From: an uncultured Gammaproteobacteria bacterium
GTDB taxonomy: Bacteria > Pseudomonadota > Gammaproteobacteria > Eutrophobiales > Eutrophobiaceae
Direction of reading: 5' to 3'
Assembly (NCBI GenBank): GCA_963976795.1
Contig: CAXBLT010000006.1
Coordinates: forward strand, 81,791-145,790
DNA: 64,000 nucleotides
Shown: positions 31,734-58,962 of the stretch, one piece after another
Position numbering within the stretch: the first letter of the stretch is position 1
How the letters are laid out: each line of letters begins with the position of its first letter
Made by a program: the position numbers and the translations under genes
Notes under the pieces: generated by a model
The model's database searches: none
Told to the model about the DNA's origin: nothing
What the model saw: the letters and a program-made list of their open reading frames with translations, nothing else

Positions 31734-31750
31734 AAATATTTAGCCTCATA

Positions 31751-31823: not shown

Positions 31824-31848
31824 ATAGCGATGATTATGATCAAATTTC

Positions 31849-35404: not shown

Positions 35405-35419
35405 AATTAAAATCCTCTA

Positions 35420-36475: not shown

Positions 36476-36511
36476 CATTCTCTTCCATGATTAAAACCAT
36501 AGAAGAGAATG
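36476..36511 (-). terminator. Perfect 10-bp inverted repeat (CATTCTCTTC ... GAAGAGAATG, 16-nt loop) downstream of the RND gene. Possibly an operon-terminal hairpin or a protein-binding site.
   Basis: Read from the DNA. There is no U-tract after the stem, so it is not a canonical intrinsic terminator. Confidence 0.25.
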
Positions 36512-36550: not shown

Positions 36551-38989
36551 TTATGCGGGCGCGTTACCTGTTAAGGCTGCATCATTCGCATTATTAGTTT
36601 GTTCCCGTTCTTCATTAAAAATGAATTTTGGTTTAAAAATATATGCCATGGCAGGCATCAAGAACAATGCTGATAAAGCAGATACGGTAAGCCACATGCC
36701 AATTAGCATACCCATTTCAGCCTGGAAGCGTAATGAGGAGAAGAGCCACACTCCAACGCTGACAATCAAGACAAGCGCAGTAACCAATACACCGCGGCCA
36801 GCACAATGCAATGATATTGCAATTGCCTCTAGGTGAGATTTTCCTAAATCATACTCACCCTTAATTCGATCACAAATATATAGTGTGTAATCCACACCTA
36901 GCCCAATTCCTAAAGCAGCAACAGGAACGGTATTAATATTCATACCTATATTTTGCCAAGACATGAAAGCAAAAGTAACAAGATTCGCTAACACAACTGG
37001 CACCATAAAAAACATACCGGCAATACTAGAGCGATATACAACGATACACATCATCACCAGAATGAACAGGGCTAAGGCAATCGATTGTATCTGCCCAGAC
37101 AAGATGACCTCATTCACAGATGCAATTACACCTATAATTCCACCCGCCAATCTAAAGTTAGCAAGTTCTTGTAGCTCGGGGTTATCTTTTATGAATTGTT
37201 TAACACGCGCAATTGCCGTTTGAATCGTCACACCTTTTCTATCTGAAAAATACATCAGCACGGAGGCATAATTAATATCAACATCAGTGAAACGTAACAA
37301 ATCACCTGGTTCAGCCGCTCGTTCAAACATGAACAATAATTCTCCATTCTGATCAGTATTCGTACCTAATTCTGAATATCGAAAGTTACCTTCACGTAAA
37401 GTCTGGTTAACTGAAGGGAGTACGTCGGCTACGGATATAGTAGCTCCAATTTCTTTTTGTTGTTCCATGTACTGCTGAAATCGCAGCATACCATCAAGAA
37501 TTTCAACATCTTTTATCTTCCCTGTGACCTTCCCACCAAACTCATTCTTTGCACCTTCTTCAACACCCCCTACAACAACAAACATCCTGTCTGCACCGGG
37601 AAATTGTTTATTTATGTTTGCAGAATCCACGTTATAACGACCATCTGGCCAAAGAATAGGAGAACCAGGATTAGCATCACCTACTTTTAAGTCAACTGCG
37701 TAGATCCCGCTCACTATGAATAATAAAACTGCCAATGCCACAACAACATATCTTGCTTTAGTCGCAACAACATTAACGCAGATATTTAAGAAAGGTCTGA
37801 TCACTAGCAAATCCAGATTAAGCGGATGCGCATATGACTTTGGCTTTTTGACCCATGACAGTAATACAGGTGTCACGATGATAGAACTAATAGCCACGGT
37901 ACCAACCCAGACAACGGCTAAAACAACTAATTTTTGCAATAATGGAATGGGACTAATCGCGACCACTGTCACGCAACCTGCATCAGTTGCGATCCCTAAC
38001 AAGCCAGGTCTAAGTAGATCTTTCATTGTCACGGTTGCCGCAGACAGGGAGTCTAGATCTTCCTCATGTCCTTCAACTTTATCGATCTCTTCATGGAACC
38101 GAGTCATCATCTGCACTGAGTGAGATACCGCTCGAGCTGTAATCAGCATGGCAACAACAACAACCAGTGGGTCAAAGTGAATACCGCATAATTGCGCTAC
38201 ACCCAAAGCCCAGACAGCACTAATAGCACCCGACAACATAGGCAAGATAGTTCCACGCCAAGTCCTGTTTATAACGAATAACAAGACAAGAAAAATTGCC
38301 GCGGCAATACTGATAAGCTTCATTGTTTCTGGTAGGAAGTGGTCAACCCAGCCATACAATATCGGGTTACCCACCAAACTTATATCAACAGTGTCGTCAT
38401 CAAGCCTTTCCACTAACTCATATGCTTGTTTATACGCAAGATTGAAATCGAGTAGATTGTCGAAAAAATCCACTGTAATGAGTGTTGCCGTTAAGTCTTT
38501 TGATACAAAAGGTCCATAAACCAGTGGGCTACGTAAAATAGCCTCTTTCATATAATCGATATCAGCTTGAGTCTCTGGTAAATCTGGCCACATATACGGA
38601 AAGCTTTCAATACCAACTGTAGACGCTCTGGTTTCTTTAAGTTTTTTACCCGCTATAGAGTAGATCTGAAATTCATTTATGGCGTCAATCTTGTATAAGC
38701 CTTGAGTAAGGTCTCGTATTTTTTTCAAGACCGGCATTTGAAAGATATCACCTTCTTTTGATTGAATCATGAAGGTAATAATACTGGTACCGCCAAAAGT
38801 ATCCTTAAATTGCTCGTGTACTTTTATATAGGGGTGTGAACCAGGCTGTAAATCTTCGAATACCGTTTTGACATCTATTCGATAAGCAAAATTTGCTAAA
38901 ATAGCTGTTACAACAATGACCATTGCGAGCACAACTTTTCTGTGTCTCATACAAAATAAAGCAAAATTCTCTAACATTTCTTTCTCCAA
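36551..38989 (-). CDS. RND-superfamily (MMPL/HpnN-like) inner-membrane exporter.
   Basis: 812 aa. Two repeats of 1 TM plus a large periplasmic loop plus 5 TM. A sterol-sensing-domain-like region. It is the last gene of a four-gene minus-strand cluster. Confidence 0.85.
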   Translation of the reverse strand: MEKEMLENFALFCMRHRKVVLAMVIVVTAILANFAYRIDVKTVFEDLQPGSHPYIKVHEQFKDTFGGTSIITFMIQSKEGDIFQMPVLKKIRDLTQGLYKIDAINEFQIYSIAGKKLKETRASTVGIESFPYMWPDLPETQADIDYMKEAILRSPLVYGPFVSKDLTATLITVDFFDNLLDFNLAYKQAYELVERLDDDTVDISLVGNPILYGWVDHFLPETMKLISIAAAIFLVLLFVINRTWRGTILPMLSGAISAVWALGVAQLCGIHFDPLVVVVAMLITARAVSHSVQMMTRFHEEIDKVEGHEEDLDSLSAATVTMKDLLRPGLLGIATDAGCVTVVAISPIPLLQKLVVLAVVWVGTVAISSIIVTPVLLSWVKKPKSYAHPLNLDLLVIRPFLNICVNVVATKARYVVVALAVLLFIVSGIYAVDLKVGDANPGSPILWPDGRYNVDSANINKQFPGADRMFVVVGGVEEGAKNEFGGKVTGKIKDVEILDGMLRFQQYMEQQKEIGATISVADVLPSVNQTLREGNFRYSELGTNTDQNGELLFMFERAAEPGDLLRFTDVDINYASVLMYFSDRKGVTIQTAIARVKQFIKDNPELQELANFRLAGGIIGVIASVNEVILSGQIQSIALALFILVMMCIVVYRSSIAGMFFMVPVVLANLVTFAFMSWQNIGMNINTVPVAALGIGLGVDYTLYICDRIKGEYDLGKSHLEAIAISLHCAGRGVLVTALVLIVSVGVWLFSSLRFQAEMGMLIGMWLTVSALSALFLMPAMAYIFKPKFIFNEEREQTNNANDAALTGNAPA

Positions 38990-39049
38990 CGAGCCGAAAT
39001 CAAATACTTCGACTACCCCTAATTATTTATTATTATTTGAATAAAAAAT

Positions 39050-40123
39050 CTAATCGGCCAACAATGTCCATGTATCTGTTTTTAGGTCCATTGAGCCTAC
39101 TGTTTGACCAACTGACAAAAAACTAGCCCCATCAATAGATAATTCAGTATGTGATGTTAGATCTGTATCTGACAGGTTTTTTGAATCAAATTGCGTCAAA
39201 TCTGCTGAAAATGTTATCCACTTGCCTTTGTTACCAACGGCCACCCACTCATTTGTCTCATCAGACCACTCCACATCCATTAAATGCTCAGTCATACCGG
39301 ATACTTTGGGTTCGATATAAGTCCAAGTCTCGCCGCCATCTTTTGTTGCCACAATGGCACCGCCCAAGCCTACAACAACACCTTCAGTAGGAGTGCGAAA
39401 CGCCACAGCAGTAAAGCTGTTTGGACTATCAGTTTGGGTATCTTCCCAGGTCTTACCGTTGTCGCTGCTTTTGAATATCAGACCAAACTCGCCAGCTATA
39501 TAAAGCGTAGTCTCATCAACTCGAACAATATCATTCATGAAGACATCCTCTTCTTCACGCATTTGCGTCCATGTATTACCATAATCATGACTATTGAGTA
39601 TCATGCCCATTTCGCCCACTGCCCAGGCTTCTCCGTTTGGATAAGAATGAACACGAAGCAATTTGTTAGCGGTATCTGATTTTGGTGAGTCAACTTCTAC
39701 CCAAGTCTTACCACCGTCATCAGTCCTGAGAGTAACGCCTTCGTTACCGACAGCTACTGATTTATTTTCATCCCAAGAGGTTATGTCTTGCAGGTGAGAG
39801 TCAACAGGTGCTGTTTGGCTTTCCCATGTCCGTCCCTTATCTCTGGAAATGAGAAGTTTCCCATAGTTTCCAGCTGCCATATAGACATCAGAACTTACTT
39901 TGCTTAAACCAAAAATATTATCACGTACATTAATTACAGGAGGGATAACTTCTTCTATCACAGCAGTGGGTTTGACGAAGATACCAGCCCATAGCAAGGT
40001 ACCCACAATAGCCCAAGGCATTATAGAGAGAATAAGCTTTGCAAACTTCTGCCCAAGTGAATCAGCAGTATTAGTTGTTCCAGACATTTGTTCTGCTGCG
40101 GTATTATTTTCTGACATGTTCAT
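39050..40123 (-). CDS. BNR-repeat / Ycf48-like beta-propeller protein (N-terminal membrane anchor).
   Basis: Repeated BNR (Asp-box-like) motifs: 'DKGRTWESQ', 'DGGKTWVEV', 'YGNTWTQM', 'DNGKTWEDT', 'DGGETWTYI'. Length is 357 aa. Confidence 0.75.
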   Translation of the reverse strand: MNMSENNTAAEQMSGTTNTADSLGQKFAKLILSIMPWAIVGTLLWAGIFVKPTAVIEEVIPPVINVRDNIFGLSKVSSDVYMAAGNYGKLLISRDKGRTWESQTAPVDSHLQDITSWDENKSVAVGNEGVTLRTDDGGKTWVEVDSPKSDTANKLLRVHSYPNGEAWAVGEMGMILNSHDYGNTWTQMREEEDVFMNDIVRVDETTLYIAGEFGLIFKSSDNGKTWEDTQTDSPNSFTAVAFRTPTEGVVVGLGGAIVATKDGGETWTYIEPKVSGMTEHLMDVEWSDETNEWVAVGNKGKWITFSADLTQFDSKNLSDTDLTSHTELSIDGASFLSVGQTVGSMDLKTDTWTLLAD

Positions 40124-40316
40124 AACAACCCTTCTTCATAAAGTAATTCTTAACCAAGAGGATCTAAAGAAGCATTAGTAATCCTATGAATGGTTAACGC
40201 GTCATTCGTATTTGATTACACCCCATAAAAATTAAAGTAGGTAGCTGCTAGATAAGGTCTATCTAACAGCTACCATTGAGGGGGGAGAACAATATTAAAA
40301 CTAATTTATTGTTATG

Positions 40317-41594
40317 TTACTTAGCGATACTGATTAACTTCTTAAGAGTCACATCATCCGCTTCAACACCTGCTGGATTGGCTTTCATATTGGATGACCA
40401 AGTAGTAGAGAACTCAGCCTTCCAATCGATGATATGACCAACTACTGGCATAGTAGCTAAATATCCATCATCACCAACATCACGACGGTTTTGGAAAATA
40501 AATGATTTCCAGAATTTGCCGTTTTGGTCAAGTGCTTCACCATAGTATGGGCGAGGATAATCAACTTCCATCCAGACCGTTTTCTGACTGTATGGATGTT
40601 CATCTGGTGGTATACCTTCAATTACCCATACTTCACGAGGCTCCCATTGCACTTGTGGTGCAGGAAAGAAATGCGGAGGAATATCCATACCTACGGCGGG
40701 GAATTCTTTGATGGTGTTCTTATAGGTTAAATCAACAGTCATAAGTGGAGCATGTGCAATCGCAAAGATCCATTCGCGACCTATCAATTTAGTAGACTTG
40801 TATTTAGTTGGTACCGCGTCCCAAATGTCCCAATCATCATACAACTGCACGGTTCCACCAATGGGGTCCATCCACGCATTACCTGTTAAACGACGTGCGC
40901 GACGTACAGACTTCAAGTAAGCCCATGTATCATCTGGTGTCTTTGCAGTAGGATCATTGTAACGAATTGAGAAGATACCTAAACCTTTAATATCTTGTGG
41001 GTAGGTAGCAACCAATACGGTTTTTTGTAAGATAGTACCATCACCCTCAGAAATAGGTCCGCCATCAAGACGTCCTTCCATATAGTAACGCTGAGCCCAC
41101 CAACGTTGAATACGTTCCATACCCTTTGTAGCATCCAGAAACACCCATGAGATGTGACGAAGATCCATAGTTGCGCCATAAGTAGGTCCGCGCAAGTTCC
41201 AAATCAGCTTGTCTCCAGCATAAGGGTCATCCATCTTGATGTCTTGTGGATCAAAAAACATGCCTGCTTCCCATCCAGATACAGTACGATCAGAAGGATT
41301 GAACTTAACGGTTTCCTTACTTTTCTGGGTCCATGTCATGTATTTCTCATCCATAGGAACAGGCTCTGAATGACGAACAGGAATCTTTAAGTGGTGGTTA
41401 CGAATCATCCACTCATATTTACCTGGCAACATATCACCGACACGCTTGCCTTCGAATGTCATGTCGATTACTTGATCGAGGTTCTCTGCACTGATTATGG
41501 TGCCTTCAGGCATCTCTTCAGCAACAGCGCTCAATGGAGCGCCTACAAGCAGCCCCAAAGAAACTACTGATGTAGCTAATATTTTCTTATACAT
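40317..41594 (-). CDS. DUF1329-like periplasmic protein (LolA-like fold family). The family assignment is from memory and not searched.
   Basis: Signal peptide 'MYKKILATSVVSLGLLVGAPLSAVA'. 425 aa soluble protein encoded between a DUF1302-like barrel and a BNR protein, which matches the recurring DUF1302-DUF1329-BNR-RND synteny. Confidence 0.55.
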   Translation of the reverse strand: MYKKILATSVVSLGLLVGAPLSAVAEEMPEGTIISAENLDQVIDMTFEGKRVGDMLPGKYEWMIRNHHLKIPVRHSEPVPMDEKYMTWTQKSKETVKFNPSDRTVSGWEAGMFFDPQDIKMDDPYAGDKLIWNLRGPTYGATMDLRHISWVFLDATKGMERIQRWWAQRYYMEGRLDGGPISEGDGTILQKTVLVATYPQDIKGLGIFSIRYNDPTAKTPDDTWAYLKSVRRARRLTGNAWMDPIGGTVQLYDDWDIWDAVPTKYKSTKLIGREWIFAIAHAPLMTVDLTYKNTIKEFPAVGMDIPPHFFPAPQVQWEPREVWVIEGIPPDEHPYSQKTVWMEVDYPRPYYGEALDQNGKFWKSFIFQNRRDVGDDGYLATMPVVGHIIDWKAEFSTTWSSNMKANPAGVEADDVTLKKLISIAK

Positions 41595-41682
41595 ATAATA
41601 CTCCTACGTTTTAACAATCGTCCTGCATTGCTGCAGGACATAATGAGTAACTAATACTTTTTTACACAACTACTTAATTAAC

Positions 41683-43332
41683 TTAGAACTGTCTTGTAAC
41701 TTTTAAAACTAACTGATTATCATCGGCAAACCAGTCAAACAATGATGCGCTGTTTTCCGAAACACCTAATGGGTTTACTTTGCCGCCTGCAGCAGTACTT
41801 GCAGAGACTTTCTTCTCGTCACCATCACTCCACCAAAGATCAGCTTCTAACTTGACACGCCAATCATCGCCAAAGACTAGCTCAACAGCGGCGATACCAA
41901 AACCACCACCGTTACTTAAGTCAGTACCAACGACAAATGTTGGGTTAATCGTGTCACGTTTGAAGTTTAACAATGAGAATATTGTCAAATAAGCTGTGTG
42001 CTCTCTCTTTTGCGCACCGAAAGAGGCAAACTCAACGATTTCATCTGAGTCTTTATGATCTAATATCCAAGTATCAAATAACTGCACACTAGATAAGGAT
42101 GGGCGGTTGGTACCTAGATATTTTCCCCACTTAAACTCTTTATCGATGCGGAACATGGTAACCAAGGTATCTTTTGTCTTAACACCTTCCCAACCTGGGA
42201 GAGAAGAACCTAAAGCACCAAAGTTGTATGGCTTATTAGGGATAAACGCGACTTCCGCACTCAATGTTGAATCAATAATCGGCGCATAACCGTTTGCACT
42301 GACACCAAATACATTAATATGAGGATAGATCCAATCACCCAACACGCCATTTTGTGCAACCTCACCAAAAGAATTCATTGCACCGACACCAAAAGCGCCT
42401 GGTGTCGCAGAATTCACCGCGGGGTTCATAATAGGAGCAGGGTTGAACGTCCTTAGATATGCTACTGAGTATCCAATTGAACCAATATCACTATTCCAAC
42501 GAAAACCAAAGGTTGGATCGTCTTGTGAACCATCCGTATGATCAGCATTATATTGCGTAAATGCTGTAAAATCGACACCACGATATGGGTGTGGAATCCA
42601 GCGTCCGCCTTCAATATTAAAGTTACTGCCCACATCATCATCACGATCCAGACCCGGGCGCACGAAGAAATTCAGGCTACCACCAAGTTCGTCATATAAA
42701 TCTAAATCAAAATTGACCAAGAATAATGGTTTACGCCAATCTTCGTTATTCTCAAAAAACAGTCTCCAACGATAATCAAAACCATGCACCAAATCCATGG
42801 CCTGGAAGAAATCACTCTCACCCCAAACCAATTGTTGCTTACCGACTCGCATGTTTAACTTACCATCAAACAATGCGAAATCTGCATAGTATTCACGGAA
42901 AAACTCTTGTATATGGTCCGTGTTGTACTGATCGAGATACTGACCACGAGTAGCTGTACCATTGTTTGATGTTAATTTAGTCATGCTTTCGAGTGAATCA
43001 AGATAATCCGTTTGCAACTCCCTATCAAACCGACTAACGATTTTCCAAGAGACTGGACCAGTATAGATATCGGTATCCAGCAACAATGTGGCTCGAGCCA
43101 TAGTAAAATCAAACTGATCGTTTTCAGGTGTTTCAGCGTGATCCTCAAGACCTACCCCAAAATATGTACGGGCATAGCCACTCACAGCAAAGCTCCAATC
43201 TTCTCCAAAGCCGCCTGTACAGGTGTCACAAGCTGGTTCATCTGCAGCCATTACAGAACCAGTCGCAACGGTTCCCCCAAAACACAATAGAAAACCTGCG
43301 GCTTTCAATATATTGCTATTATATTTTTTCAT
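41683..43332 (-). CDS. DUF1302-like outer-membrane beta-barrel protein. The family assignment is from memory and not searched.
   Basis: Signal peptide 'MKKYNSNILKAAGFLLCFGGTVATGSVMA'. 549 aa. A C-terminal Phe ('...VTRQF') is typical of OM beta-barrels. It is the first gene of the cluster. Confidence 0.55.
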   Translation of the reverse strand: MKKYNSNILKAAGFLLCFGGTVATGSVMAADEPACDTCTGGFGEDWSFAVSGYARTYFGVGLEDHAETPENDQFDFTMARATLLLDTDIYTGPVSWKIVSRFDRELQTDYLDSLESMTKLTSNNGTATRGQYLDQYNTDHIQEFFREYYADFALFDGKLNMRVGKQQLVWGESDFFQAMDLVHGFDYRWRLFFENNEDWRKPLFLVNFDLDLYDELGGSLNFFVRPGLDRDDDVGSNFNIEGGRWIPHPYRGVDFTAFTQYNADHTDGSQDDPTFGFRWNSDIGSIGYSVAYLRTFNPAPIMNPAVNSATPGAFGVGAMNSFGEVAQNGVLGDWIYPHINVFGVSANGYAPIIDSTLSAEVAFIPNKPYNFGALGSSLPGWEGVKTKDTLVTMFRIDKEFKWGKYLGTNRPSLSSVQLFDTWILDHKDSDEIVEFASFGAQKREHTAYLTIFSLLNFKRDTINPTFVVGTDLSNGGGFGIAAVELVFGDDWRVKLEADLWWSDGDEKKVSASTAAGGKVNPLGVSENSASLFDWFADDNQLVLKVTRQF

Positions 43333-43825
43333 TCCTCCCCCTTAAAGAGTTTTAAAAAACTAAAATCGTCATAAAAAATTGTTCTTTTTTATTAACAAAA
43401 CTAACACTTCTTATAACGATATCTGAAGATGGGGAACAAGTTTTATGCCAAACAGAGAGAACCTGCCTATTCTAAGGGTAAGCCTCTGATATATAAGAAC
43501 AACACTGTTCACAATTCCATCGCCAATTTGCTTATACCGGACTATATAAGAACGACTGTGTGCTAACATGGAACGGTTTTCTATAAACCGTTCAACCAGT
43601 GTGGTTTTTAAAGGATATTCAACCGTATTTTTTAATAAAATAGTCAGTAATTTGAACTATTTATGCTACTAAATAATCAATTTTGTGGAAGTTAATGAAT
43701 AATGTTAACATTTAGGCCAATTTATCCTTAAACGATACATTGAGTAGGCCTTTGGTTAAGTATTTTCCCGTAAAGACCTTATAAACAAGATTCTTGTACA
43801 CGGTGGTGTTAAATAACTAAATTCC

Positions 43826-45835
43826 ATGAGTCAATCACTAAAAGAAGCCGACATCAATACACACTTTTATTCCCAAAAAGATGTTGACCAAGCTTGGGAT
43901 AGTTTTCTTTGCTCAGGAGGGGCGTCAAAGAATCTGCCTGTACGCGATATGATAGCCAGCTCATGGGAGCGCTGCCTATCTCAAGGTGTCAATCCTGAGC
44001 AAACTGCAGCGCCGCTCTTAGCCACCGAGGGCACCTTACATATCCTTCGCCAAAATAATACTGATCTCATGAAATGCGCACGACCTGTCTTAGCACAGGC
44101 CAGGGTCTTTTTACGCGATCTTGACACAATATTAATTCTGACTGACTACAACGGGGTCAATCTGGATGTTGTCGGAGATCCTAAGTGTGTTGAAGATGCT
44201 GTCGGAATTGGAATGGTGCCAGGTAGTGGCTGGAAAGAGACTGTTTCCGGATCAAATGCTGTAGGTACAGCGATGGCAACGGGGATGCCTACACAAGTCC
44301 ACGGAGAAGAGCATTTCATACAAGGCTTTAAGCCCTGGACATGCACTGCTGGGATAATAAGCGATCCATATGACAATCAATTGATCGGCGTAATTGACGT
44401 TTCTGGCTTATCAGCCACATTTGATAAATTCCACGTCCCTTTAGTCGTATCATGGGCCAATCAAATTCAATTGTCACTCGCCAAAAACACCTCTGAGCAA
44501 TGGAGTCTCATCAGAGAAAACAGCCAGTGTGACTTTAAAAATAGTCACCGAAATGCTGGGAGAATGTTATTTGATACGCAAGGAAGGCTGGTTGACCACT
44601 CTCAAAATGCCTGTTCAATACTCAATTCACTCGGTATTGGATATGATCTTTCTATGAAGTCTCGCTTATCGCTAGAGCGTTTTGGCGGAGACGAGATTGT
44701 GTATCCTCATGACGCAGGGTTATGGCTATCAAGTGATTGGATCGAACCCGTCAAGGATAAAAACGAGGTGATAGGTTTCAAGATAGAACTACCCACAAAC
44801 AAACGCTCCTCGCAACGAACAAACCCATCGTCTGCTATTGCAGCGGTTAAAATCAACTCACAAGCAGATCCTTTTGGCAAAATATCAGGACAAAGTGCAT
44901 CAGTTAGAGCCAGCATTGAAAAAGCTAGTAAAGCAGCTACGACACCACTTCCTGTTCTAATTTTAGGCGATACAGGTGTCGGAAAAGAAATGTTTGCTCG
45001 AGCTATACATGAAGCGAGTAACTTCGCTAATGGTCCATTTATTGACCTGAACTGTGGCGCTTTCACTAAAGATATTTTAAGCAGTGAACTATTTGGTCAT
45101 GTCGAGGGTGCTTTCACAGGCGCAAAAAGAGGCGGTATGATGGGGAAAATTGAAGCTGCAAATGGCGGCACACTATTTCTGGATGAGATAGGTGAAATGC
45201 CACTTGAGATTCAACCTGTTTTTCTAAGGGTTTTACAAGAAAGAAAGATACATCGTGTTGGTGCTATTGCACCAATTCCAGTCAACTTTAGACTCATTGC
45301 TGCCACAAATAGTTATCTTAAACGAGAAGTTTCTGAAGGCCGATTTAGAAAAGATTTATTCTTCCGTTTATCCACAGTTGCAATTGCGCTTGATCCTCTT
45401 TCAAGACGAAAAGAAGACATTGAAGAGATTGCACACTTAGTTTTAAAAGAAATTCAAAATTCTCAAGAGATTGTGCCTAAACGAATATCCGCCTCTTTAA
45501 TAACCTCACTAAAAAACCGGGAATGGCCAGGCAACATTAGAGAGTTAGTAAATGTGATTGAATGCATGTGTTATATGTCTTCAAATGAGACCCTAACCAT
45601 TGAGGATTTACCTGCCGGTTATCAACCGGGAGAATCACTGATCAGCGGAGTACCTTCTGAACAAAATCAACCGTCTGAGTCTCTATCGAACCTGGATATT
45701 GCAGAACAACAAGCAATTGAAAATGCAATTATTGAGTTTGGTGGCAATATCACTCAAGCAGCTAAAAACCTGGGCATCGCAAAAGGTACCCTCTATCGAA
45801 AAATGAAAAAATATAAATTAGAAAATCCTCGTTAG
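43826..45835 (+). CDS. Sigma-54-dependent enhancer-binding transcriptional activator of the AcoR/AcxR type (N-terminal sensory domain, AAA+ sigma54-interaction domain, C-terminal Fis-type HTH).
   Basis: AAA+ motifs: Walker A 'GDTGVGKE', GAFTGA motif 'GAFTGA', 'GGTLFLDEIGEMP'. C-terminal HTH 'AAKNLGIAKGTLYRKMKKY'. N-terminal '...ASSWERCLSQGVNPE...' as in AcoR-family regulators. Confidence 0.85.
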   Translation: MSQSLKEADINTHFYSQKDVDQAWDSFLCSGGASKNLPVRDMIASSWERCLSQGVNPEQTAAPLLATEGTLHILRQNNTDLMKCARPVLAQARVFLRDLDTILILTDYNGVNLDVVGDPKCVEDAVGIGMVPGSGWKETVSGSNAVGTAMATGMPTQVHGEEHFIQGFKPWTCTAGIISDPYDNQLIGVIDVSGLSATFDKFHVPLVVSWANQIQLSLAKNTSEQWSLIRENSQCDFKNSHRNAGRMLFDTQGRLVDHSQNACSILNSLGIGYDLSMKSRLSLERFGGDEIVYPHDAGLWLSSDWIEPVKDKNEVIGFKIELPTNKRSSQRTNPSSAIAAVKINSQADPFGKISGQSASVRASIEKASKAATTPLPVLILGDTGVGKEMFARAIHEASNFANGPFIDLNCGAFTKDILSSELFGHVEGAFTGAKRGGMMGKIEAANGGTLFLDEIGEMPLEIQPVFLRVLQERKIHRVGAIAPIPVNFRLIAATNSYLKREVSEGRFRKDLFFRLSTVAIALDPLSRRKEDIEEIAHLVLKEIQNSQEIVPKRISASLITSLKNREWPGNIRELVNVIECMCYMSSNETLTIEDLPAGYQPGESLISGVPSEQNQPSESLSNLDIAEQQAIENAIIEFGGNITQAAKNLGIAKGTLYRKMKKYKLENPR

Positions 45836-45918: not shown

Positions 45919-46905
45919 TTATTCATTATTCACAAGCACCATCCCATAAAAACCAGCTTGTTCAATTAGCTCATGTGATTCTACGATTTTATCCAATGCT
46001 ATTATGTGTGCGATCCTGTGCTGTAATAAACCTCTTTCCAGAAAATCTGTGACATCGTAGATTGCATCTGCCTTAGCTGACTCTGGCATCGCATAAACCA
46101 ATACCATGCGTATCGTTAGATCCATAAACATCATTCGTTTAAAAGGTATCACGGGTTCTGGAACCTGCATTGAAGCATAAGTCGCAATCGTAGCACCTAT
46201 ACGTGCCACATCTAAAAGTACAGGCAGATTCCCGCCAAACTCACCATCAATAATACGTTCAACACCCTGACCATTTGTCATTTCAGCAACCGTATCAAGC
46301 AATTCAACTCCTTGATGTGGACAAACTACATCGGCACCCGCAGCATAGCAATGCGCTTCTGCCTCAGAATTACTCGCTGTCGCAATTACATTGGCGCCGG
46401 CATATTTTGCAAGCTGAATAACATAATGACCTACTCTTCCAGCACCGCCCGTTACCAAGATTGTTTGACCTTCGACCGGGCCATCAGCAAAGATACATCG
46501 ATGTGCCGTCATGGTGGGTATCCCTATACACGCACCAATATCAAATCCAATATTATCGGGTAGTAGCACTGCTCTATTGGAATCAACTGACACGTATTCA
46601 GCGGCGGTTCCAAAACGGCGGCCATACTGAGCTTGATAAACCCAAACGCGCTCACCTATCCGCGAATGTGGTACACCACGGCCAACGGCTTCTATTACGC
46701 CTGAGCCATCACTATGAGGGATAATAAAACCATCTTTAAGTAAATCTGGAAACGCACCTGCACGTTTTTTCACATCTGACGGGTGTACTGCAGAATAATT
46801 TAACCGTACTAAAACCTCTCCATGTTCTGGTGAAGGGACATCAAGCTCAACGATATTCAACACATCATGTGCCGAACCCATCTTATTATATTGTGCTGCC
46901 TTCAT
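45919..46905 (-). CDS. MDR-family NAD(P)-dependent oxidoreductase (quinone-oxidoreductase-like), distal gene of the carboxylase operon.
   Basis: 328 aa. GroES-like N-domain and Rossmann motif 'ILVTGGAGRVGHYVIQLAK'. Confidence 0.8.
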   Translation of the reverse strand: MKAAQYNKMGSAHDVLNIVELDVPSPEHGEVLVRLNYSAVHPSDVKKRAGAFPDLLKDGFIIPHSDGSGVIEAVGRGVPHSRIGERVWVYQAQYGRRFGTAAEYVSVDSNRAVLLPDNIGFDIGACIGIPTMTAHRCIFADGPVEGQTILVTGGAGRVGHYVIQLAKYAGANVIATASNSEAEAHCYAAGADVVCPHQGVELLDTVAEMTNGQGVERIIDGEFGGNLPVLLDVARIGATIATYASMQVPEPVIPFKRMMFMDLTIRMVLVYAMPESAKADAIYDVTDFLERGLLQHRIAHIIALDKIVESHELIEQAGFYGMVLVNNE

Positions 46906-46999
46906 TAACTTACCTTTTATCCTTTACTTGATTGTGCATCAAGTCTAATAACCATAATTAAAAGAATATCGCTCATTAATCAACCTGATGAATAGCACA

Positions 47000-48016
47000 C
47001 TATCGGTCATTAACAATAACGATTTTGCCAAAATGCTTAGCTGCAGTGAGATGCTCATAAGCACCCATTGCATCGCTAAATGCAAATGACTTATCAATAG
47101 TTGGCTTAAGATTATTATCAATAATAACCTTGTTCATCGCATTAAACATCTCAACACTACCGACATAAATCCCGTGAACCCGCAGTAGATTAAATATTAC
47201 GGATAAATTAAATGCTGGTCCATCAAACCCGGATAACAATCCAATCATTGAAACGATACCATTGACCTTTGCCGAAGCTATCGATTTTTCAAAAGTGCCT
47301 ACACCACCAACTTCCAATACATTATCAACACCATTTCCATCCGTAATTTTTAAGACTTCATCTTCCCAGTCAGGATGTTCACGATAATTAACTGTATGAT
47401 CAGCACCCATCTTACGAGTCCGTTCTAATTTTTCATCACTGGATGAAGTAATAATAACTCTTGCGCCCAAAGCTTTTGCCAACTGTAAACCAAAAATGGA
47501 AACACCTCCGGTTCCCAACAACAATACTGTATCACCTTTTTTTAAGTCCCCCATTGATACTAATGCATGCCATGCAGTAACGGCGGCGCAAGGCAAAGTC
47601 GCAGCTTCTTCATACGATAATTGTTCAGGAATGGGTAATGCAGCATTTGCTTTTAAAACAAAGTAATCAGCCAAAACACCATTAATTGAACCACCTAATG
47701 CAGAGTGCAAACCTGCCATACTCATCGGTCCGTCAATCCATTCCTGAAAGAAATTACCAACAACCCTATCCCCTACCTTATGAGTTGTAACCGAACTACC
47801 AACAGCAACAACTTCTCCGGCACCATCTGACACAGGAATAATGGGTCTAATATCATTGCGTACATAACCACCTTGTGGAATCAGCAAATCACGAAAGTTA
47901 AGTGAACATGCTTTCATTTTCACCAAAACCTCATCCGCTGCCGGTTTTGGTTCGTTTAACTCGATCAGTTTTATATCTTCAAAACCATCTGTTGTTTGTA
48001 CCTGATATGCACGCAT
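47000..48016 (-). CDS. MDR-family zinc-type alcohol dehydrogenase / quinone oxidoreductase.
   Basis: 338 aa. 'LVKMKACSLNFRDL', 'VLLLGTGGVSIFGLQLAKALGARVI'. Confidence 0.8.
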   Translation of the reverse strand: MRAYQVQTTDGFEDIKLIELNEPKPAADEVLVKMKACSLNFRDLLIPQGGYVRNDIRPIIPVSDGAGEVVAVGSSVTTHKVGDRVVGNFFQEWIDGPMSMAGLHSALGGSINGVLADYFVLKANAALPIPEQLSYEEAATLPCAAVTAWHALVSMGDLKKGDTVLLLGTGGVSIFGLQLAKALGARVIITSSSDEKLERTRKMGADHTVNYREHPDWEDEVLKITDGNGVDNVLEVGGVGTFEKSIASAKVNGIVSMIGLLSGFDGPAFNLSVIFNLLRVHGIYVGSVEMFNAMNKVIIDNNLKPTIDKSFAFSDAMGAYEHLTAAKHFGKIVIVNDR

Positions 48017-48090
48017 AAACTTTTAAACCTCTTTAAAAATTATTGTGAATTGTAAAGCGTTAAATTTCTGTTTGTAAATCACAGTCTAAT

Positions 48091-49356
48091 TTATTTCACA
48101 CGCCGCATAACAGAAACGCAGTTTGTTACCCCTGAACCGCCTATGTTAACGGTCATCGCCAATTCCGGCTGCCCTTTTGCAGCAACACCAATAGGATCGC
48201 CGATTAGTTGTTTATAAGCCAACGCATGCATAGATGCACCTGTTGCGCCAACAGGGTGCCCCTTTGACTTAAGACCTCCGGAAAGATTGATAGGACAACT
48301 CCCGTCCGTATCATATTTTCCTTCCATAAAGTCGTACCCTGCACGACCCGATTCAGATAGTCCCATCGCTTCTGCACAGAGCATTTGGTTTATGGTAAAG
48401 CAATCGTGAACTTCTGCTAACTCCATATCTGTCACCTTCACCCCTGCCTCGGTACACGCTTGTTGTACAGCGTGTTTTGCCGCTTGAAGCTCATGTAAGG
48501 TTTCTTTGCGCTCGCTCATCATCATACGTTGTGTCACATGACCTATACCAGAAAGTTCAACAGCATGGTTAAAGTTCGCTTTAGCATTCTCAGTTGATGT
48601 AAGAACAACTGCAGCAGCGCCATCAGAAATCAAAGAACAATCATGCAGTCTTAATGGTGGTGCAATCAGTGGATTACTGCCTTTACCTGAGTCAGGTAAA
48701 TCAAGAATAGCATCTGCGGTCACTAATTGCTTTTTATCAGGCAGGCTTCCAGGCCCAAAGTGAGCTAGCGGATTATGAATGCCATTGCGATAATTTTGCG
48801 CAGCAATATGCGCAAACATAATGCGAAGTTCTTCATCACTCATTCCATGTTTTGCTTGATAGGCTTTTGCTAACTCACCAAACAAGCCAGGGAAAGTCAC
48901 ACCCATAGAACCCTCTTCGGGCCAATATGAACTACACGCCAAGGCATGAGTAACACCTTTAGTATCCAACAGACTCATTTTCTCAACACCAAGCGCAAGG
49001 ACATTCTTAAAACGACCACTGGCCACGGCATAAGCTGCGTTATATATAGCAACAGATGAAGTTGCACAAGCGCCTTCCGTACGTGTTGTTGGTTTATAGA
49101 GTAATCCATCGGGATCAATTTCCAACGCCAATGGTGCCACATGTTCCTGATTTACGAACATGGAAGGAGAACAAGAGCCGAGCCAAACTGCATCGATATC
49201 CTTTGCCTCCAGACCGGCATCGGCAATTGCACCTGCCCCTGCTTCTATTATTAATTCATAAAACGATTTTAAATCTTCTACTTCACCTGTTTCTCTATCA
49301 CGCTTAACAAACGCACCGAACTGAGTATTGTGTGCACCAACTATACTAATATCCAT
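48091..49356 (-). CDS. Thiolase-superfamily protein (SCP-x / nonspecific-thiolase-like), a candidate beta-ketoacyl-CoA thiolase.
   Basis: 421 aa. The N-terminus 'MDISIVGAHNTQFGAF' and C-terminal 'NLSGGLKSKGHPVGATG' are thiolase-fold signatures. Confidence 0.8.
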   Translation of the reverse strand: MDISIVGAHNTQFGAFVKRDRETGEVEDLKSFYELIIEAGAGAIADAGLEAKDIDAVWLGSCSPSMFVNQEHVAPLALEIDPDGLLYKPTTRTEGACATSSVAIYNAAYAVASGRFKNVLALGVEKMSLLDTKGVTHALACSSYWPEEGSMGVTFPGLFGELAKAYQAKHGMSDEELRIMFAHIAAQNYRNGIHNPLAHFGPGSLPDKKQLVTADAILDLPDSGKGSNPLIAPPLRLHDCSLISDGAAAVVLTSTENAKANFNHAVELSGIGHVTQRMMMSERKETLHELQAAKHAVQQACTEAGVKVTDMELAEVHDCFTINQMLCAEAMGLSESGRAGYDFMEGKYDTDGSCPINLSGGLKSKGHPVGATGASMHALAYKQLIGDPIGVAAKGQPELAMTVNIGGSGVTNCVSVMRRVK

Positions 49357-49431
49357 CTGACTGTCCTCTCCACATAAAAACGTGGATTAAAAATGTGAAA
49401 AATAAAATTAAAGATATAACAAAATTTGAAT

Positions 49432-50997
49432 TTATATTTTGCGATCAAGCTTGTCCCAAAAATATTTACGGATTTCTTTTTTCAATACTTTGCCAACAGA
49501 GCTACGAGGTAATTCATCCCAAATTAAAATCTCTTTTGGCGATTTAACGCTGCCTAATTTTTGCTTACAAAGTTCAATTATTTCTTGTGTATTCGGTTTA
49601 ATAGCAGCTTCCTTTAGTTCAACTACGGCTGTTACTTGCTCACCCCATTTTTCATCCGGGATACCAATAACTGCACAGTCTTTTATTGCTGGATGCCCCC
49701 AGATAAGTTGTTCAATCTCCCCGGGGTACACATTAAACCCGCCAGATATGATCATATCGCGTTTGCGATCGACAATAGATAAATATCCATCATTATCAAA
49801 GACGCCAACATCTCCGGTTTTTTGCCAGCCATTTACACGTATCTCTTGCGTTGCATCTGGGTTATTGAAGTAACAACGCATTATTAAGTCCCCTTTTACG
49901 GCAATTTCACCTTCTTTTCCTGCTGGAAGCGTATTCCCATCATCATCCAGAATTGCTAGATCAATATGTGGTGCTGTTTTGCCACAAGAACGAATCCTGG
50001 AAGAATCACCGCTTTCAACTGCATGAACATGATCATCAACTGAGAGAAAAGTACAAACCATTGGCGATTCTGCCTGCCCATATGTTTGAACCATCACAGG
50101 ACCAAAAACCTCAATGGCTTCTTTGAGTTTTTCTACGGACATCGGCGCAGCGGCATACCAAAAATACCTTAAACTTGAGTAATCATAATTCCTGACGCCT
50201 TCATGAGCCAATAGCATATATATGGCTGTGGGTGGCAAAAATAGATGCGTGACCTTATATTTTTCGATAACAGATAATAAAATATCGGGGATCATGCCTT
50301 CCATTACAACGATGTTTGAGCCTTGTAAAATCGGTGCAAATGACGCAACACCTGCGGCATGCGTCATCGGCGCACTCACAAGATAGCATGAAGGTATATC
50401 AGGTTCTGGCATTAATTCTATTTGAATAGACACCATCGATTGCCATGTTAAGTATCCCCACTCTGCTAATTTAGAATCACCTGTTGTACCTCCCGTTGGG
50501 AACAAACTTACTAATTTAGACTCATCTCTTCTTGTTAGCTTTTCTTCTGTGTCTTGATCAATACTCTTTATAAAATTTTCAATTGCAACTCCAGCTATTT
50601 CTTTAGCTGTAAATGACAAACAATTCTCACCCTTATATTGTTCGCCAAGCTCAGGATTAGAAGCAAGGATGTTCGAGTCAACAAAAAGTAACCTTGTATC
50701 AGATTTTTTTAGTAACTTTAAATTAGCTTCCAGAGTATTTCTAACATTGAGTGGTAACCAGATCGCACCTAATTGGGAAATTGCAAAAATACAGCAATAG
50801 GCGGCAACAGAATTTGGCGCATAACTTGCGACAACATCCTGCTCATGAACACCTTTGTCTCTTAACTGTACGGCAATATGTTGTGCTACATTAAATACTT
50901 CTTGATAGCTAAGTGAAACATCATTGTCGATATCGATAAACTTTGCATCACCCTCGGCAAACGCAGGGCTATGTTCGAGAAAATCAATAATGCGCAT
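49432..50997 (-). CDS. AMP-dependent acyl-CoA ligase, a candidate beta-ketoacid--CoA ligase.
   Basis: 521 aa. AMP-binding motifs 'FPTGGTTGDSK' and 'YGQAESPM'. C-terminal 'SSVGKVLKKEIR'. Confidence 0.85.
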   Translation of the reverse strand: MRIIDFLEHSPAFAEGDAKFIDIDNDVSLSYQEVFNVAQHIAVQLRDKGVHEQDVVASYAPNSVAAYCCIFAISQLGAIWLPLNVRNTLEANLKLLKKSDTRLLFVDSNILASNPELGEQYKGENCLSFTAKEIAGVAIENFIKSIDQDTEEKLTRRDESKLVSLFPTGGTTGDSKLAEWGYLTWQSMVSIQIELMPEPDIPSCYLVSAPMTHAAGVASFAPILQGSNIVVMEGMIPDILLSVIEKYKVTHLFLPPTAIYMLLAHEGVRNYDYSSLRYFWYAAAPMSVEKLKEAIEVFGPVMVQTYGQAESPMVCTFLSVDDHVHAVESGDSSRIRSCGKTAPHIDLAILDDDGNTLPAGKEGEIAVKGDLIMRCYFNNPDATQEIRVNGWQKTGDVGVFDNDGYLSIVDRKRDMIISGGFNVYPGEIEQLIWGHPAIKDCAVIGIPDEKWGEQVTAVVELKEAAIKPNTQEIIELCKQKLGSVKSPKEILIWDELPRSSVGKVLKKEIRKYFWDKLDRKI

Positions 50998-51027
50998 TTT
51001 GTTTCCTGAGCAAAACTTGCCCGGAGA

Positions 51028-51882
51028 CTAAGTTCTTAAACGAGAAAGCGTATCAAGTACTAATTCAGGTGTTGTATCTTCAGGAATAGTAAGATAGTTA
51101 AAATTATTTCCTGATGAAACAGTTTCCTGCCCTTCCCATAATGGTTTGCTGATATCCTTACCGATAGAACTTTCTGTTCCTGCGCTGTCTACAGGGGCAA
51201 TAGAGAAATTAACATCTTCAGGTACACTAAAACCAGCATCTGAAAAAGGAAGGTGTAATCCCACTGACCAACGGTAATGTTTAGTAACGTTATATATCGG
51301 CTGATACCAGGTCAATTCTTCTATGCTTTGGGGCATTGAATCAGGATCTTCTCTCAGTAACACACCTGATAAATCCACTTCGCTAAAGTATCTCAAATAA
51401 TCAGCTACATACATTGAGACAGTGTCTATATGTGTTTCTTCGGGTTCTACATCGACCCCATTAGCAGCCTTGTTTGCTTTGATTAACAAACAACGTGGTG
51501 ACGGTATAACTAATACAATCGGCACTGAGCCGCCATAGTTATTCCCAATTGCCGTTAGCACTTCTGCTAACAACTCCCTTGGAGCAAAAGCTTCCAGCAT
51601 TGTTTTTACCGCAACTGTTATGCGTTTTTTACCAGCCATCGATGGGATAGCTTCTTCATCTTCTTGCATCCAATGATGAAACAGATCCCAGATGTCGATT
51701 ACAACAACGTCTGCATTTACTAAACCATGTGCCTGTCCATAAAAAGACATATAAGCAGGAGGATTAGTCCATGGGTTTTCTCCTTCTGCTAATAACAACT
51801 TTTTGGTATAGGCATTGAAATCAATCCAAAGCTTAGGAGGTCCGTCTCCAACAGATAAATAGTTAACTAAATCTATAGCCAT
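51028..51882 (-). CDS. Conserved hypothetical protein (about 32 kDa). It is a candidate fifth (epsilon-like) subunit of the carboxylase complex. This is inferred from position and size only.
   Basis: 284 aa. It is 2 bp downstream of the HyuB-like gene and 30 bp upstream of the CoA ligase. Acetophenone carboxylase has a 34-kDa epsilon subunit in the same operon position (remembered from the literature, not verified by alignment). Confidence 0.45.
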   Translation of the reverse strand: MAIDLVNYLSVGDGPPKLWIDFNAYTKKLLLAEGENPWTNPPAYMSFYGQAHGLVNADVVVIDIWDLFHHWMQEDEEAIPSMAGKKRITVAVKTMLEAFAPRELLAEVLTAIGNNYGGSVPIVLVIPSPRCLLIKANKAANGVDVEPEETHIDTVSMYVADYLRYFSEVDLSGVLLREDPDSMPQSIEELTWYQPIYNVTKHYRWSVGLHLPFSDAGFSVPEDVNFSIAPVDSAGTESSIGKDISKPLWEGQETVSSGNNFNYLTIPEDTTPELVLDTLSRLRT

Positions 51883-51883
51883 T

Positions 51884-54163: not shown

Positions 54164-54177
54164 AGTTTATTACCTCG

Positions 54178-56325: not shown

Positions 56326-56382
56326 AATCTACTTTCCTATAACTTTTTAGTAGTTTGACTTATTGTTCGTAGTATTTATTAA

Positions 56383-56790
56383 CTAGTGGCTATGTTTATG
56401 ACGCTCACGTTCACCTAAAACGTCAGGACCAATCGTTGCCTCTGTAATCTCTTCTCGATGACTCCACTGCTCTTTCAGAGCGTCTACATCAACTTCCATA
56501 TCATAGAGTGGCTCATGATTTGGCATAGTGTTCTCAACTTCAACCTGCGTACCACAACTTGGACAATAAAACTCAAGAATATTGACCCAGTCTTTATCAG
56601 GACAAAATGTGAATTTATATTTTTCGGGATCGATAATATGAGGATGGATATCTGCCGGGTCGCGATTATAAACCAACAAACCTTCCTTGTAATTCCCACG
56701 AGCAGAGCCAATCACATGCTCACAAACACGACATTCCCAATTTTCTGTATCCAAATCGATACGAAGGTATTCGGTCATTAAAACTTTCAT
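56383..56790 (-). CDS. Acetone/acetophenone carboxylase gamma-subunit-like small zinc-ribbon protein.
   Basis: 135 aa with two Cys pairs 'CRVCEH' and 'CPSCGT'. 'EFYCPSCGTQVEVE' parallels acetone carboxylase gamma 'EYFCPECGTLHDVE'. It overlaps the upstream HyuA-like gene by 1 nt. Confidence 0.75.
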   Translation of the reverse strand: MKVLMTEYLRIDLDTENWECRVCEHVIGSARGNYKEGLLVYNRDPADIHPHIIDPEKYKFTFCPDKDWVNILEFYCPSCGTQVEVENTMPNHEPLYDMEVDVDALKEQWSHREEITEATIGPDVLGERERHKHSH

Positions 56791-58845: not shown

Positions 58846-58861
58846 AGCATTTATCATGCCA
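58846..58861 (-). promoter_or_regulatory. Candidate sigma-54 (-24/-12) promoter, TGGCAT-gataa-ATGCT, about 120 nt upstream of the first carboxylase gene.
   Basis: The minus strand reads TGGCATGATAAATGCT. GG and GC are spaced exactly as in the TGGCAC-N5-TTGCW consensus. Confidence 0.5.
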
Positions 58862-58962
58862 TAAACTTAATCAACACTTTTTAAACTATATCTAACTGTT
58901 TTATTAGATAGTTTGCTAAAAGAATTAAAATAATTCTTGCATATTGCTCGTTCTATAATCGA

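Follow-up and report, generated by a model that had tools for sequence, protein, structure and literature searches.

Within a 64,000-nucleotide stretch of contig CAXBLT010000006.1 from an uncultured Gammaproteobacteria bacterium (the window, to which positions given without a locus number refer), four minus-strand genes very probably encode an envelope transporter of the AmeABCD type that belongs to a sigma54 (AcxR/MimR-type) ketone regulon. The module is of an already named and described kind and is not a discovery in itself. New here are its ketone context across loci with acetone carboxylase (Acx), acetophenone carboxylase-like (Apc-like) and Baeyer-Villiger monooxygenase (BVMO) genes, the promoter architecture it has in common with the neighbouring carboxylase operon, and its two-pair operon structure. 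With regard to function, outward transport of a substrate-like cargo, i.e., export in the service of tolerance, is preferred tentatively. The four genes are the following.

41683..43332, minus strand: DUF1302 outer-membrane beta-barrel, AmeA-like, 549 amino acids (aa) (Pfam, signal peptide, C-terminal Phe, AlphaFold2 (AF2) model)
40317..41594, minus strand: DUF1329 soluble periplasmic LolA-like protein, AmeB-like, 425 aa (Pfam, AF2, Foldseek)
39050..40123, minus strand: Ycf48-like BNR/Asp-box beta-propeller with an N-terminal membrane anchor, AmeC-like, 357 aa (Pfam, PDB match)
36551..38977, minus strand: MMPL/HAE3-like RND transporter, AmeD-like, 808 aa from ATG (Pfam, hydropathy, start-site reading)

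Composition of the four-gene module

A previous, sequence-only reading of the stretch had described four co-directional genes for a barrel with a C-terminal Phe, a soluble periplasmic protein, an N-terminally anchored propeller and an RND exporter with 12 transmembrane (TM) helices and two loops. All four open reading frames (ORFs) were found, co-directional on the minus strand, the predicted topologies were borne out, and Pfam placed 41683-43332 and 40317-41594 in DUF1302 and DUF1329, as had been proposed. The RND ORF is open from a TTG at 38989 (36551-38989, 812 aa); its start is most likely better placed at the ATG at 38977, giving 808 aa, because a GGAG lies 7 nt upstream and the same start is used in metagenome gene calls.

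The DUF1302 protein matched Pfam PF06980 with E=4e-15 and 56 bits (cutoff 23.2), the match being confined to residues 141-549, and PF06980 was present in 120 of 120 DUF1302 homologues among the matches listed. A signal peptide (cleavage between ...SVMA and ADE) and the C-terminus ...TRQF were recognised. In the AF2 model (predicted template-modelling score, pTM, 0.74), 18 long strands were counted, and its structural matches in the PDB were generic porins and AlgE only, at a query-normalised TM-score of at most 0.44. Searching the PDB by sequence with this protein found no solved relative, and NCBIfam yielded no model for DUF1302 or DUF1329. This agrees with the ECLIPSE paper (2026), which describes DUF1302 as an 18-strand barrel without a PDB structure (PMC13499233).

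For the DUF1329 protein, Pfam PF07044 was matched with E=1.4e-44 and 153 bits, accompanied by a LolA_like match. The protein is predicted to be soluble and periplasmic, since a signal peptide is present (cleavage between ...SAVA and EE) and a lipobox Cys is absent. Foldseek searches with its AF2 model (62 homologues as input, pTM 0.84) gave P. gingivalis LolA3, 3bk5, the DUF1329 protein 4z48 and 3buu as best PDB matches, with target-normalised TM-scores of 0.62-0.78, followed by RseB/MucB and LolA itself; the predicted structure is that of a LolA fold. Of the four proteins, DUF1329 is the most conserved, with 59-64% identity between Gamma- and Betaproteobacteria.

The propeller matched Pfam PSII_BNR/Ycf48 (PF14870; E=2e-25, 90 bits) and cyanobacterial Ycf48-like proteins in the PDB (1e-17), and it carries a single N-terminal TM anchor at approximately residues 27-50 instead of a cleaved signal. 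With 80 bits against a cutoff of 326, it is not an equivalog of NCBIfam NF010237 (Ycf48/HCF136), and by these scores its resemblance to the Ycf48 photosystem II assembly factor is one of fold only.

The RND protein matched Pfam MMPL (E=1e-22), while the match to ACR_tran (19.8 bits) stayed below the 28-bit cutoff. Its hydropathy is compatible with 12 TM helices, with TM1 at residues 16-40 and two periplasmic loops of ~175 aa each (~41-217 and ~438-611). Alignment with MmpL3 was confined to the TM10-12 region, where the motif GLGVDY falls on the Asp-Tyr proton-relay pair (D645/Y646) of MmpL3; GLGVDY was invariant in 72 of 72 RND orthologues extracted. At the TM4 counterpart of the relay (the two relay regions being residues 286-293 and 696-703), Ser-His in Gammaproteobacteria and Ser-Asn in Betaproteobacteria stand in place of Asp-Tyr. 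With only the TM10 Asp-Tyr pair conserved, the putative relay would be asymmetric, unlike that of MmpL3.

AmeABCD of Castellaniella defragrans 65Phen was described by Puentes-Cala and Harder (2018) as a tetrapartite RND system of HAE3 type, with AmeD placed by phylogeny in a separate lineage within HAE3 (PMC6394551). Compared by description, both systems comprise DUF1302, DUF1329/LolA-like, COG4447 BNR/Ycf48-like and ~790-810 aa, 12-TM-segment RND proteins in the same order, and in either case the genes lie inside a catabolic island for a lipophilic or volatile substrate. The two differ in that the island serves monoterpene degradation in C. defragrans and ketone carboxylation in a marine gammaproteobacterial host here. 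Deletion of AmeABCD impaired growth on hydrocarbon monoterpenes but not on oxygenated ones, lowered limonene tolerance even with acetate, and raised Nile Red accumulation (PMC6394551).

The same four families, with the same DUF1302-DUF1329 and BNR-RND sub-units, make up the genes reported by Price et al. to be cofit in Shewanella, Kangiella and Pseudomonas, namely Sama_1588-1591 of Shewanella amazonensis and the split pairs Psest_1122-1123 and Psest_1923-1924 (10.1101/072470). PP_0765-0766 and PP_2018-2019 of P. putida are split pairs of this kind as well (10.1101/2020.07.04.188060; PMC10866462). The Pseudomonas pair differs in having a LuxR-type regulator and a part in fatty-ester use, as opposed to an AcxR/MimR-type sigma54 activator and ketone enzymes here. 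The sequence-only reading had called the module one of unknown function; it is correct that the literature defines no biochemical function for it, but the module has already been named, deleted, modelled and assigned to sigma54 regulons.

Between the four genes, intergenic gaps of 88, 193 and 60-72 bp were measured, and folding revealed two hairpins.

40240..40274, minus strand: intercistronic hairpin with a 16-bp stem directly 3' of the DUF1329 stop, terminator- or attenuator-like
36476..36511, minus strand: hairpin with a 16-bp stem 40 nt past the RND stop, terminator-like, without a clear U-tract

The stretch containing the hairpin 3' of the RND gene folds with -27 kcal/mol over 91 nt (z = -4.5). 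A hairpin of unrelated sequence, often followed by a T-run, lies at the same position 3' of the DUF1329 gene in 16 of 16 gammaproteobacterial loci folded (within L004-L035; locus numbers refer to the survey described below). With this conserved hairpin, the module falls into two pairs, DUF1302-DUF1329 and BNR-RND, and these are the units that are split in Pseudomonas and permuted as blocks in Betaproteobacteria. The arrangement recalls, by analogy, the hairpins between cistrons by which ABC operons attain higher levels of their binding proteins, and the hairpin at the DUF1329 gene may set a higher transcript level for DUF1302-DUF1329 than for BNR-RND.

Linkage to ketone catabolism and promoter architecture

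One genome per species was scanned with a DUF1302 homologue alignment. The scan returned 80 loci, onto which the window proteins together with extra queries were mapped. Since its patterns fit this DUF1302 subfamily specifically, the result covers the orthologous group to ~36% identity rather than DUF1302 at large. Linkage was counted in the 48 species-level loci having at least 9 kb on both sides. A ketone-activating enzyme adjoins the module in 40 of them: 20 loci carry an acetone carboxylase, 16 an Apc-like carboxylase and 4 a BVMO with an alpha/beta hydrolase (esterase). Among the others, 1 has a formamidase/ABC context and 7 show nothing recognisable.

The partner enzyme in Betaproteobacteria is an authentic AcxABC, scoring 1140 bits against Acx beta of A. 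aromaticum (5m45_B), and the gene order there is acxABC, BNR, RND, DUF1302, DUF1329, in many loci a CoA transferase, and the activator. The gene order of the window is common to marine Gammaproteobacteria (Porticoccus, Cellvibrionales and others). As had been proposed from the sequence, the module recurs in Pseudomonas as well as in marine bacteria that degrade hydrocarbons, Porticoccus among them. BVMO plus an alpha/beta hydrolase, the other known route of attack on ketones, accompanies the module and activator in place of a carboxylase in L011, L013, L014, L015 and L017 (Neptuniibacter, Pseudomaricurvus). In Burkholderia sp. 383, the four-gene module has likewise been reported beside a flavin monooxygenase and an esterase (PMC6449761). 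That three kinds of enzyme, two gene orders and two classes are involved speaks for an association under selection rather than for inherited synteny.

In L074, L078, L080 and L081 (Burkholderiales), the module comes after one gene for a formamidase/acetamidase and two for Liv-type ABC ATPases; with FmdA 98-99% identical in this single lineage, the context represents one event and not a trend. Short-chain amides are isosteres of small ketones.

The regulatory features around the module and the carboxylase operon are listed below.

43826..45835, plus strand: divergent sigma54 enhancer-binding activator, AcxR/MimR-like, with MimR_N, GAF, AAA+ and HTH_8 domains (Pfam; MimR_N from precomputed annotation)
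43542..43577, minus strand: upstream element ACCGTTCCATGTTAGCACACAGTCGTTCTTATATAG / ACCGTTCCATGTTAGnACACnnTCGTTCnTATATAG, 36 bp, with a pair of CGTTC..TAG repeats (21 bp apart), candidate binding site of the activator (phylogenetic footprint)
43479..43491, minus strand: weakly called integration host factor (IHF)-like site TATCAGAGGCTTA, lying 3' of the upstream element and 5' of the -24/-12 element
43435..43450, minus strand: sigma54-type -24/-12 element TGGCATAAAACTTGTT, 5' of the DUF1302 gene (consensus scan and conservation)
58953..58965, minus strand: second CGTTC..TATAG element CGTTCGATTATAG, within the palindrome CGTTCGATTATAGAACG, 5' of the carboxylase operon (exact motif search)
58846..58861, minus strand: sigma54-type -24/-12 element TGGCATGATAAATGCT of the carboxylase operon (consensus scan)

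The divergent activator is presumed to be the regulator of both the module and the carboxylase operon; an orthologue (37-93% identity) was present in 50 of the 80 related loci. A footprint alignment of the intergenic region between the activator and DUF1302 genes was made from the window and L004-L008, with DUF1302 identities of 79-86%. It contained the block TTGGCATAAAACTTGT of the -24/-12 region, conserved in L004-L008, the likewise conserved 36-bp upstream element, the IHF-like site lying between these two and, further 3', the ribosome-binding site. The IHF-like site TATCAGAGGCTTA has one mismatch to WATCAANNNNTTR, and its L004 version is TATCAATGATTTA. In the more distant L011, L012 and L018-L022, the canonical TGGCAC/T-N5-TTGC was found at the same position. 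A sigma54 consensus scan across the window showed no enrichment (39 matches against 35 expected), so the promoter is called from its position and its conservation instead. The perfect palindrome GAACGGTTT-N5-AAACCGTTC (43571-43593) was considered as the activator site and dropped in favour of the CGTTC..TAG repeats, because its right half alone is conserved in the relatives.

The exact sequence CGTTCNNWTWTAG occurs only twice in the 64 kb, once in the upstream element of the DUF1302 gene and once 5' of the carboxylase operon, and the spacing from the shared element to the first base of the -24/-12 element is 104 bp at both promoters. With 40 of 48 loci linked in two gene orders and a sigma54-type architecture matching that of the carboxylase operon, the coupling of the module to ketone catabolism is well supported. 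The sequence-only reading had suggested such a coupling to the adjacent catabolism from gene position, and the survey and promoters uphold it.

A comparable arrangement has been predicted elsewhere: Suvorova and Gelfand placed COG4447-COG1033-PF07044-DUF1302 operons in predicted betaproteobacterial regulons of the sigma54 proteins AphS/AphR/AphT, interpreting them as 'solvent stress' genes (PMC6449761). There, as is presumed here, the four-gene module and catabolic genes stand under a sigma54 enhancer-binding protein; the sensors are of the XylR/DmpR phenol type in the Aph regulons, in contrast to an activator with MimR_N and GAF domains and ketone carboxylation in the window.

It is very improbable that the module merely lies, functionally independent, between two catabolic blocks, or that the DUF1302 and DUF1329 proteins are themselves esterases. 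The seven of 48 fully flanked loci without a ketone enzyme nearby, and the one lineage with formamidase/ABC genes instead, would fit independence, and the esterase idea has been raised for P. putida (10.1101/2020.07.04.188060). Independence is contradicted by the linkage in 40 of 48 loci across two classes, three enzyme types and permuted gene order, and by the architecture common to both promoters. The esterase idea is at odds with models showing a porin-like barrel and a LolA fold; there were no hydrolases among the best structural matches of either model.

In four loci of the Porticoccus/Cellvibrionales group (L029, L032, L033 and L086), no activator gene was found in the flanks (10 kb for L032), and the module still lies directly after the carboxylase operon. 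A sigma54-type promoter was not found 5' of the DUF1302 gene in L086. This suggests that the module may be expressed constitutively in the loci of this group lacking the activator gene. The carboxylase layout of L032 equals that of the window (Apc-type carboxylase, CoA ligase and thiolase), and metagenome contig L086 has a layout like L032. Three contigs with Apc-like operons were sampled for the module: it was present in L086, L084 is a cut contig, and L085 has too little downstream sequence. Our literature search found no paper linking the module to ketone carboxylases, the study of the Aromatoleum acetone cluster by Schuhle and Heider (2012) being outside its reach.

Cargo and direction of transport

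In the mechanism we propose, the RND/BNR complex at the inner membrane would pass a hydrophobic molecule to an abundant soluble DUF1329 carrier, which would take it across the periplasm to the DUF1302 barrel, and the barrel would release it into or through the outer membrane. Candidate cargoes are medium-chain or aromatic methyl ketones, secondary alcohols and related lipophiles. The likeliest role would be a protective one, in that membrane-partitioning pathway substrates could not build up during their slow consumption by the ATP-dependent carboxylase route; this would parallel the role reported for monoterpenes with AmeABCD. The shuttle picture is supported by published co-folding: in the Foldy paper, AlphaFold co-folding of the P. 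putida proteins had DUF1329 contacting the barrel and the RND/BNR pair, and a transport system was proposed (PMC10866462), and co-folding of DUF1302 with DUF1329 gave an interface pTM (ipTM) of 0.84 (PMC13499233). The trans-envelope conduit of the sequence-only reading stays an inference, and the parts themselves, with a soluble LolA-like protein among them, suggest a carrier-mediated shuttle rather than a continuous duct.

The same distinction separates the module from the HAE1 solvent pumps (AcrAB-TolC, TtgGHI/SrpABC). These, too, are RND systems, driven by protons, that can adjoin catabolic genes for toxic hydrophobic substrates, but the module is without a membrane-fusion protein or TolC-family duct, and its architecture points to a shuttle instead of a sealed channel. 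Among the module's neighbours in the window, no HlyD- or OEP-family gene, ABC transporter or LolB was found. Closer in layout is the Lol pathway (LolCDE-LolA-LolB), where a soluble LolA-fold carrier likewise links an energised inner-membrane extractor and an outer-membrane acceptor. The differences are an RND instead of an ABC energiser, an 18-strand barrel instead of LolB as acceptor, a DUF1329 protein approximately twice the size of LolA, and nothing pointing to lipoprotein cargo here. Two candidates for named homologues were rejected: AupA/AupB of Marinobacter alkane uptake consists of a FadL-like and an unknown protein, and PahS/PahP, for sensing of polycyclic aromatic hydrocarbons (PAHs) in Cycloclasticus, of a TonB-dependent receptor and a binding protein.

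The lean towards export derives from the C. defragrans deletion, which loses tolerance whatever the carbon source, and from the outward working of bacterial RND transporters. To our knowledge, all characterised members move cargo outward and none imports.

Several points weigh against the reading as a whole or against its export part. The best NCBIfam match of the RND protein, HAE3 (TIGR00921; 8e-46, 156.4 bits), is sub-threshold (cutoff 351.9). At the DUF1302 promoter of the window, the -12 reads GT, not GC, with the GG of the -24 present. The motif shared by the two promoters was defined from its own two sites, and its occurrence is therefore partly circular, although the identical spacing was not built in. 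As the partner in Betaproteobacteria is a true acetone carboxylase, efflux of the substrate makes little sense there; acetone is not toxic to membranes at relevant levels and cannot be held back by a pump. In C. defragrans, the deletion had a small effect on Nile Red accumulation (PMC6394551). The ester phenotype of P. putida, described below, reads more like acquisition than tolerance. Lastly, the streamlined 1.44-Mb Arctic genome of Porticoccus sp. Uisw_050_02 (L032) has the module directly after the carboxylase operon. This strain is related to 'P. arcticus', for which carboxylation of acetone in the Arctic was described in a preprint of 2026. The preprint gives nanomolar acetone for the seawater of that lineage and ranks the carboxylase operon of P. 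arcticus among the most highly expressed genes; the four genes are not mentioned in its results and discussion sections (10.64898/2026.08.16.745133). A solvent-tolerance role is hard to justify in such a nanomolar-acetone seawater lineage.

The opposite direction of transport we regard as doubtful. For import or scavenging, the barrel would admit a poorly soluble substrate (a methyl ketone, ester or hydrocarbon), DUF1329 would bind it, the proton-driven RND/BNR complex would unload it into the inner membrane, and cytoplasmic enzymes would trap it. The module always lies within catabolic and not stress gene clusters. In P. putida, PP_0765/0766 and PP_2018/2019 were found by Thompson et al. to be needed on Tween 20 and butyl stearate, not on free fatty acids (10.1101/2020.07.04.188060), which is the finding that the sequence-only reading had mentioned; these mutants fail in pooled assays, where communal extracellular hydrolysis would hide a defect. 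The C. defragrans mutants similarly fail on hydrocarbon but not on oxygenated monoterpenes, and the hairpin 3' of the DUF1329 gene resembles the layout that over-expresses binding proteins in ABC uptake operons.

Import would also suit the occurrence of two module copies in one Methylibium metagenome-assembled genome (MAG; L048 and L065) and the co-location of other outer-membrane channels. An OprD-like porin lies 5' of the module in L009 (8212-9516), a Phenol_MetA_deg protein with two SRPBCC lipid-binding proteins 3' of it in L041 (12875-13816, Methylibium), and a Phenol_MetA_deg outer-membrane protein heads the distant Apc-like operon with a CobW metallochaperone in L085 (2112-3035). The retention of the module in a streamlined oligotroph with very few annotated transporters points the same way. 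On the other side, no bacterial RND is known to import. High limonene killed the C. defragrans mutant with acetate as carbon source, the opposite of what loss of uptake predicts, and small ketones like acetone cross membranes unaided, yet the linkage to true acetone carboxylase is tight.

The sole precedent for an inward handover is NPC1/NPC2, in which an RND protein takes lipid from a small soluble carrier; this is an analogy only, homology being shown at no closer level than that of the RND superfamily. That the module is an RND-energised importer of poorly soluble carbon sources, a bacterial counterpart of NPC2/NPC1 with the ketone-linked subfamily as its methyl ketone version, seems rather unlikely. 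If true, import would answer how esters, terpenes, long ketones and perhaps alkanes cross the periplasm, and the module would be the first inward-working bacterial RND.

Unlikely, too, is an exporter of endogenous envelope lipid, in which a cell-made lipid would be moved from the inner to the outer membrane and the surface remodelled when solvent-like substrates are sensed. Precedents are HpnN (hopanoids), MmpL3 (mycolates), BstABC (sterols) and the LolA-like/RND pairs of aryl-polyene and flexirubin clusters. By sequence, the closest characterised RND relatives are the lipid exporters MmpL3, HpnN and BstA. These HAE3/HAE2-type proteins share with the module's RND a small size, two ~175 aa periplasmic loops and hydrophobic cargo, and in the case of MmpL3 the TM10 Asp-Tyr motif aligned with D645/Y646. 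The similarity is weak (25-32 bits to PDB chains, far below NCBIfam cutoffs), those systems are without DUF1302, DUF1329 and BNR partners, and the TM4 Asp-Tyr of the MmpL3 type contrasts with Ser-His here and Ser-Asn in Betaproteobacteria.

Further features would suit an endogenous lipid. The LolA fold is a carrier fold for lipids or acyl chains, the high conservation of DUF1329 despite differing partner enzymes fits a constant cargo, and the link to acetone carboxylase would be explained without acetone as cargo. Price et al. proposed export of a cell-wall component and described pleiotropic phenotypes, and DUF1302 and DUF1329 were found in Delftia outer-membrane vesicles (10.1101/072470). 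Set against this, lipid-biosynthesis genes were not found beside the module in any locus inspected, and there is no evident reason for envelope remodelling at nanomolar ketone. The two copies in one MAG and the separate substrate-specific regulators elsewhere (PMC6449761) fit a substrate-related cargo better. Export of a substrate-like cargo for tolerance is retained as the tentative preference.

Genomic surroundings and wider significance

The catabolic operon beyond the activator gene is listed here as one feature.

45919..58727, minus strand: nine-gene catabolic operon (Pfam, PDB, NCBIfam)

Its order is HydA (645 aa), gamma (135 aa), HydA (715 aa), HydB (759 aa), a 284-aa protein, acyl-CoA ligase, thiolase and two zinc-dependent alcohol dehydrogenases (Zn-ADHs). 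The carboxylase genes proper, i.e., the two HydA paralogues, gamma, HydB and the fifth gene, occupy 51028-58727. The sequence-only reading had the module next to the ketone-carboxylase operon. The operon and the divergent activator are indeed nearby, but two ADH genes, thiolase, CoA ligase and the activator separate the carboxylase genes from the module.

The scores of HydA were 536 bits with Apc gamma and 275 with Acx beta; those of HydB were 275 bits with Apc delta and 120 with Acx alpha. Apc subunits were the best PDB and NCBIfam matches, though the Apc equivalog cutoffs were not reached (578 against 1500 and 306 against 1500 bits). By these scores, the carboxylase is of the Apc type (acetophenone carboxylase-like) and not of the acetone-carboxylase type, an assignment at the level of class, the scores not giving the substrate. 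The latter may be not acetone, or not acetone alone. The operon's CoA ligase scored highest with long-chain/fatty acyl-CoA ligase models, below their cutoffs, which hints at substrates larger than acetone. The 284-aa protein (51028-51882) always lies 3' of HydB, in the apc5 position. It had no Pfam, PDB or named homologue, and its family comprises 97 clusters in 5.8 billion proteins; the label 'Apc epsilon' was rejected for this gene, homology being undetectable.

On the 3' side of the module (28981-36124), genes for an AtoDA-like CoA transferase, an exported 148-aa protein, a glutathione S-transferase (GST), an AtoE-type short-chain fatty acid transporter, a GntR regulator and prpB/prpC of the methylcitrate cycle were found. 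The AtoDA, AtoE and prp genes fit a pathway yielding an acetoacetate-like product and propionyl-CoA, as from butanone or odd-chain ketones. The exported 148-aa protein (34043-34489) has weak, sub-threshold NTF2-like matches and is conserved downstream of the module; in L009, its homologue (16801-17241) comes immediately after the RND gene. The 148-aa protein may be an accessory component of the module.

The locus is chromosomal, as housekeeping genes (cysS, a tRNA cluster, ppsA, prpBC, icd) surround the module. The G+C content of the window is ~41%, several Tara polar metagenome scaffolds carry an identical 21-kb stretch, and the closest genomes are uncultured marine Gammaproteobacteria. Four clustered tRNA genes lie beside cysS on the minus strand (4212-4632; Lys-CTT, His-GTG, Arg-TCT, Pro-TGG). 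A gene at 514-3921 codes for a protein of 1135 aa in which EGF-like, He_PIG, bacterial Ig and cadherin-like repeats occur; EGF domains are unusual in bacteria.

The module is one of the more widespread proteobacterial envelope systems without an assigned cargo, its four families appearing in P. aeruginosa as well as in organisms that degrade terpenes, PAHs, phenols, steroids or esters. Three unrelated kinds of ketone-activating enzyme, together with an AcxR/MimR-type activator, give it a narrow and testable chemical context, that of ketones and their derivatives, and cultured, genetically tractable carriers exist in Aromatoleum, Neptuniibacter and Porticoccus. With the module beside the carboxylase operon in L032 and L086, the finding is also of relevance to marine acetone and ketone cycling.

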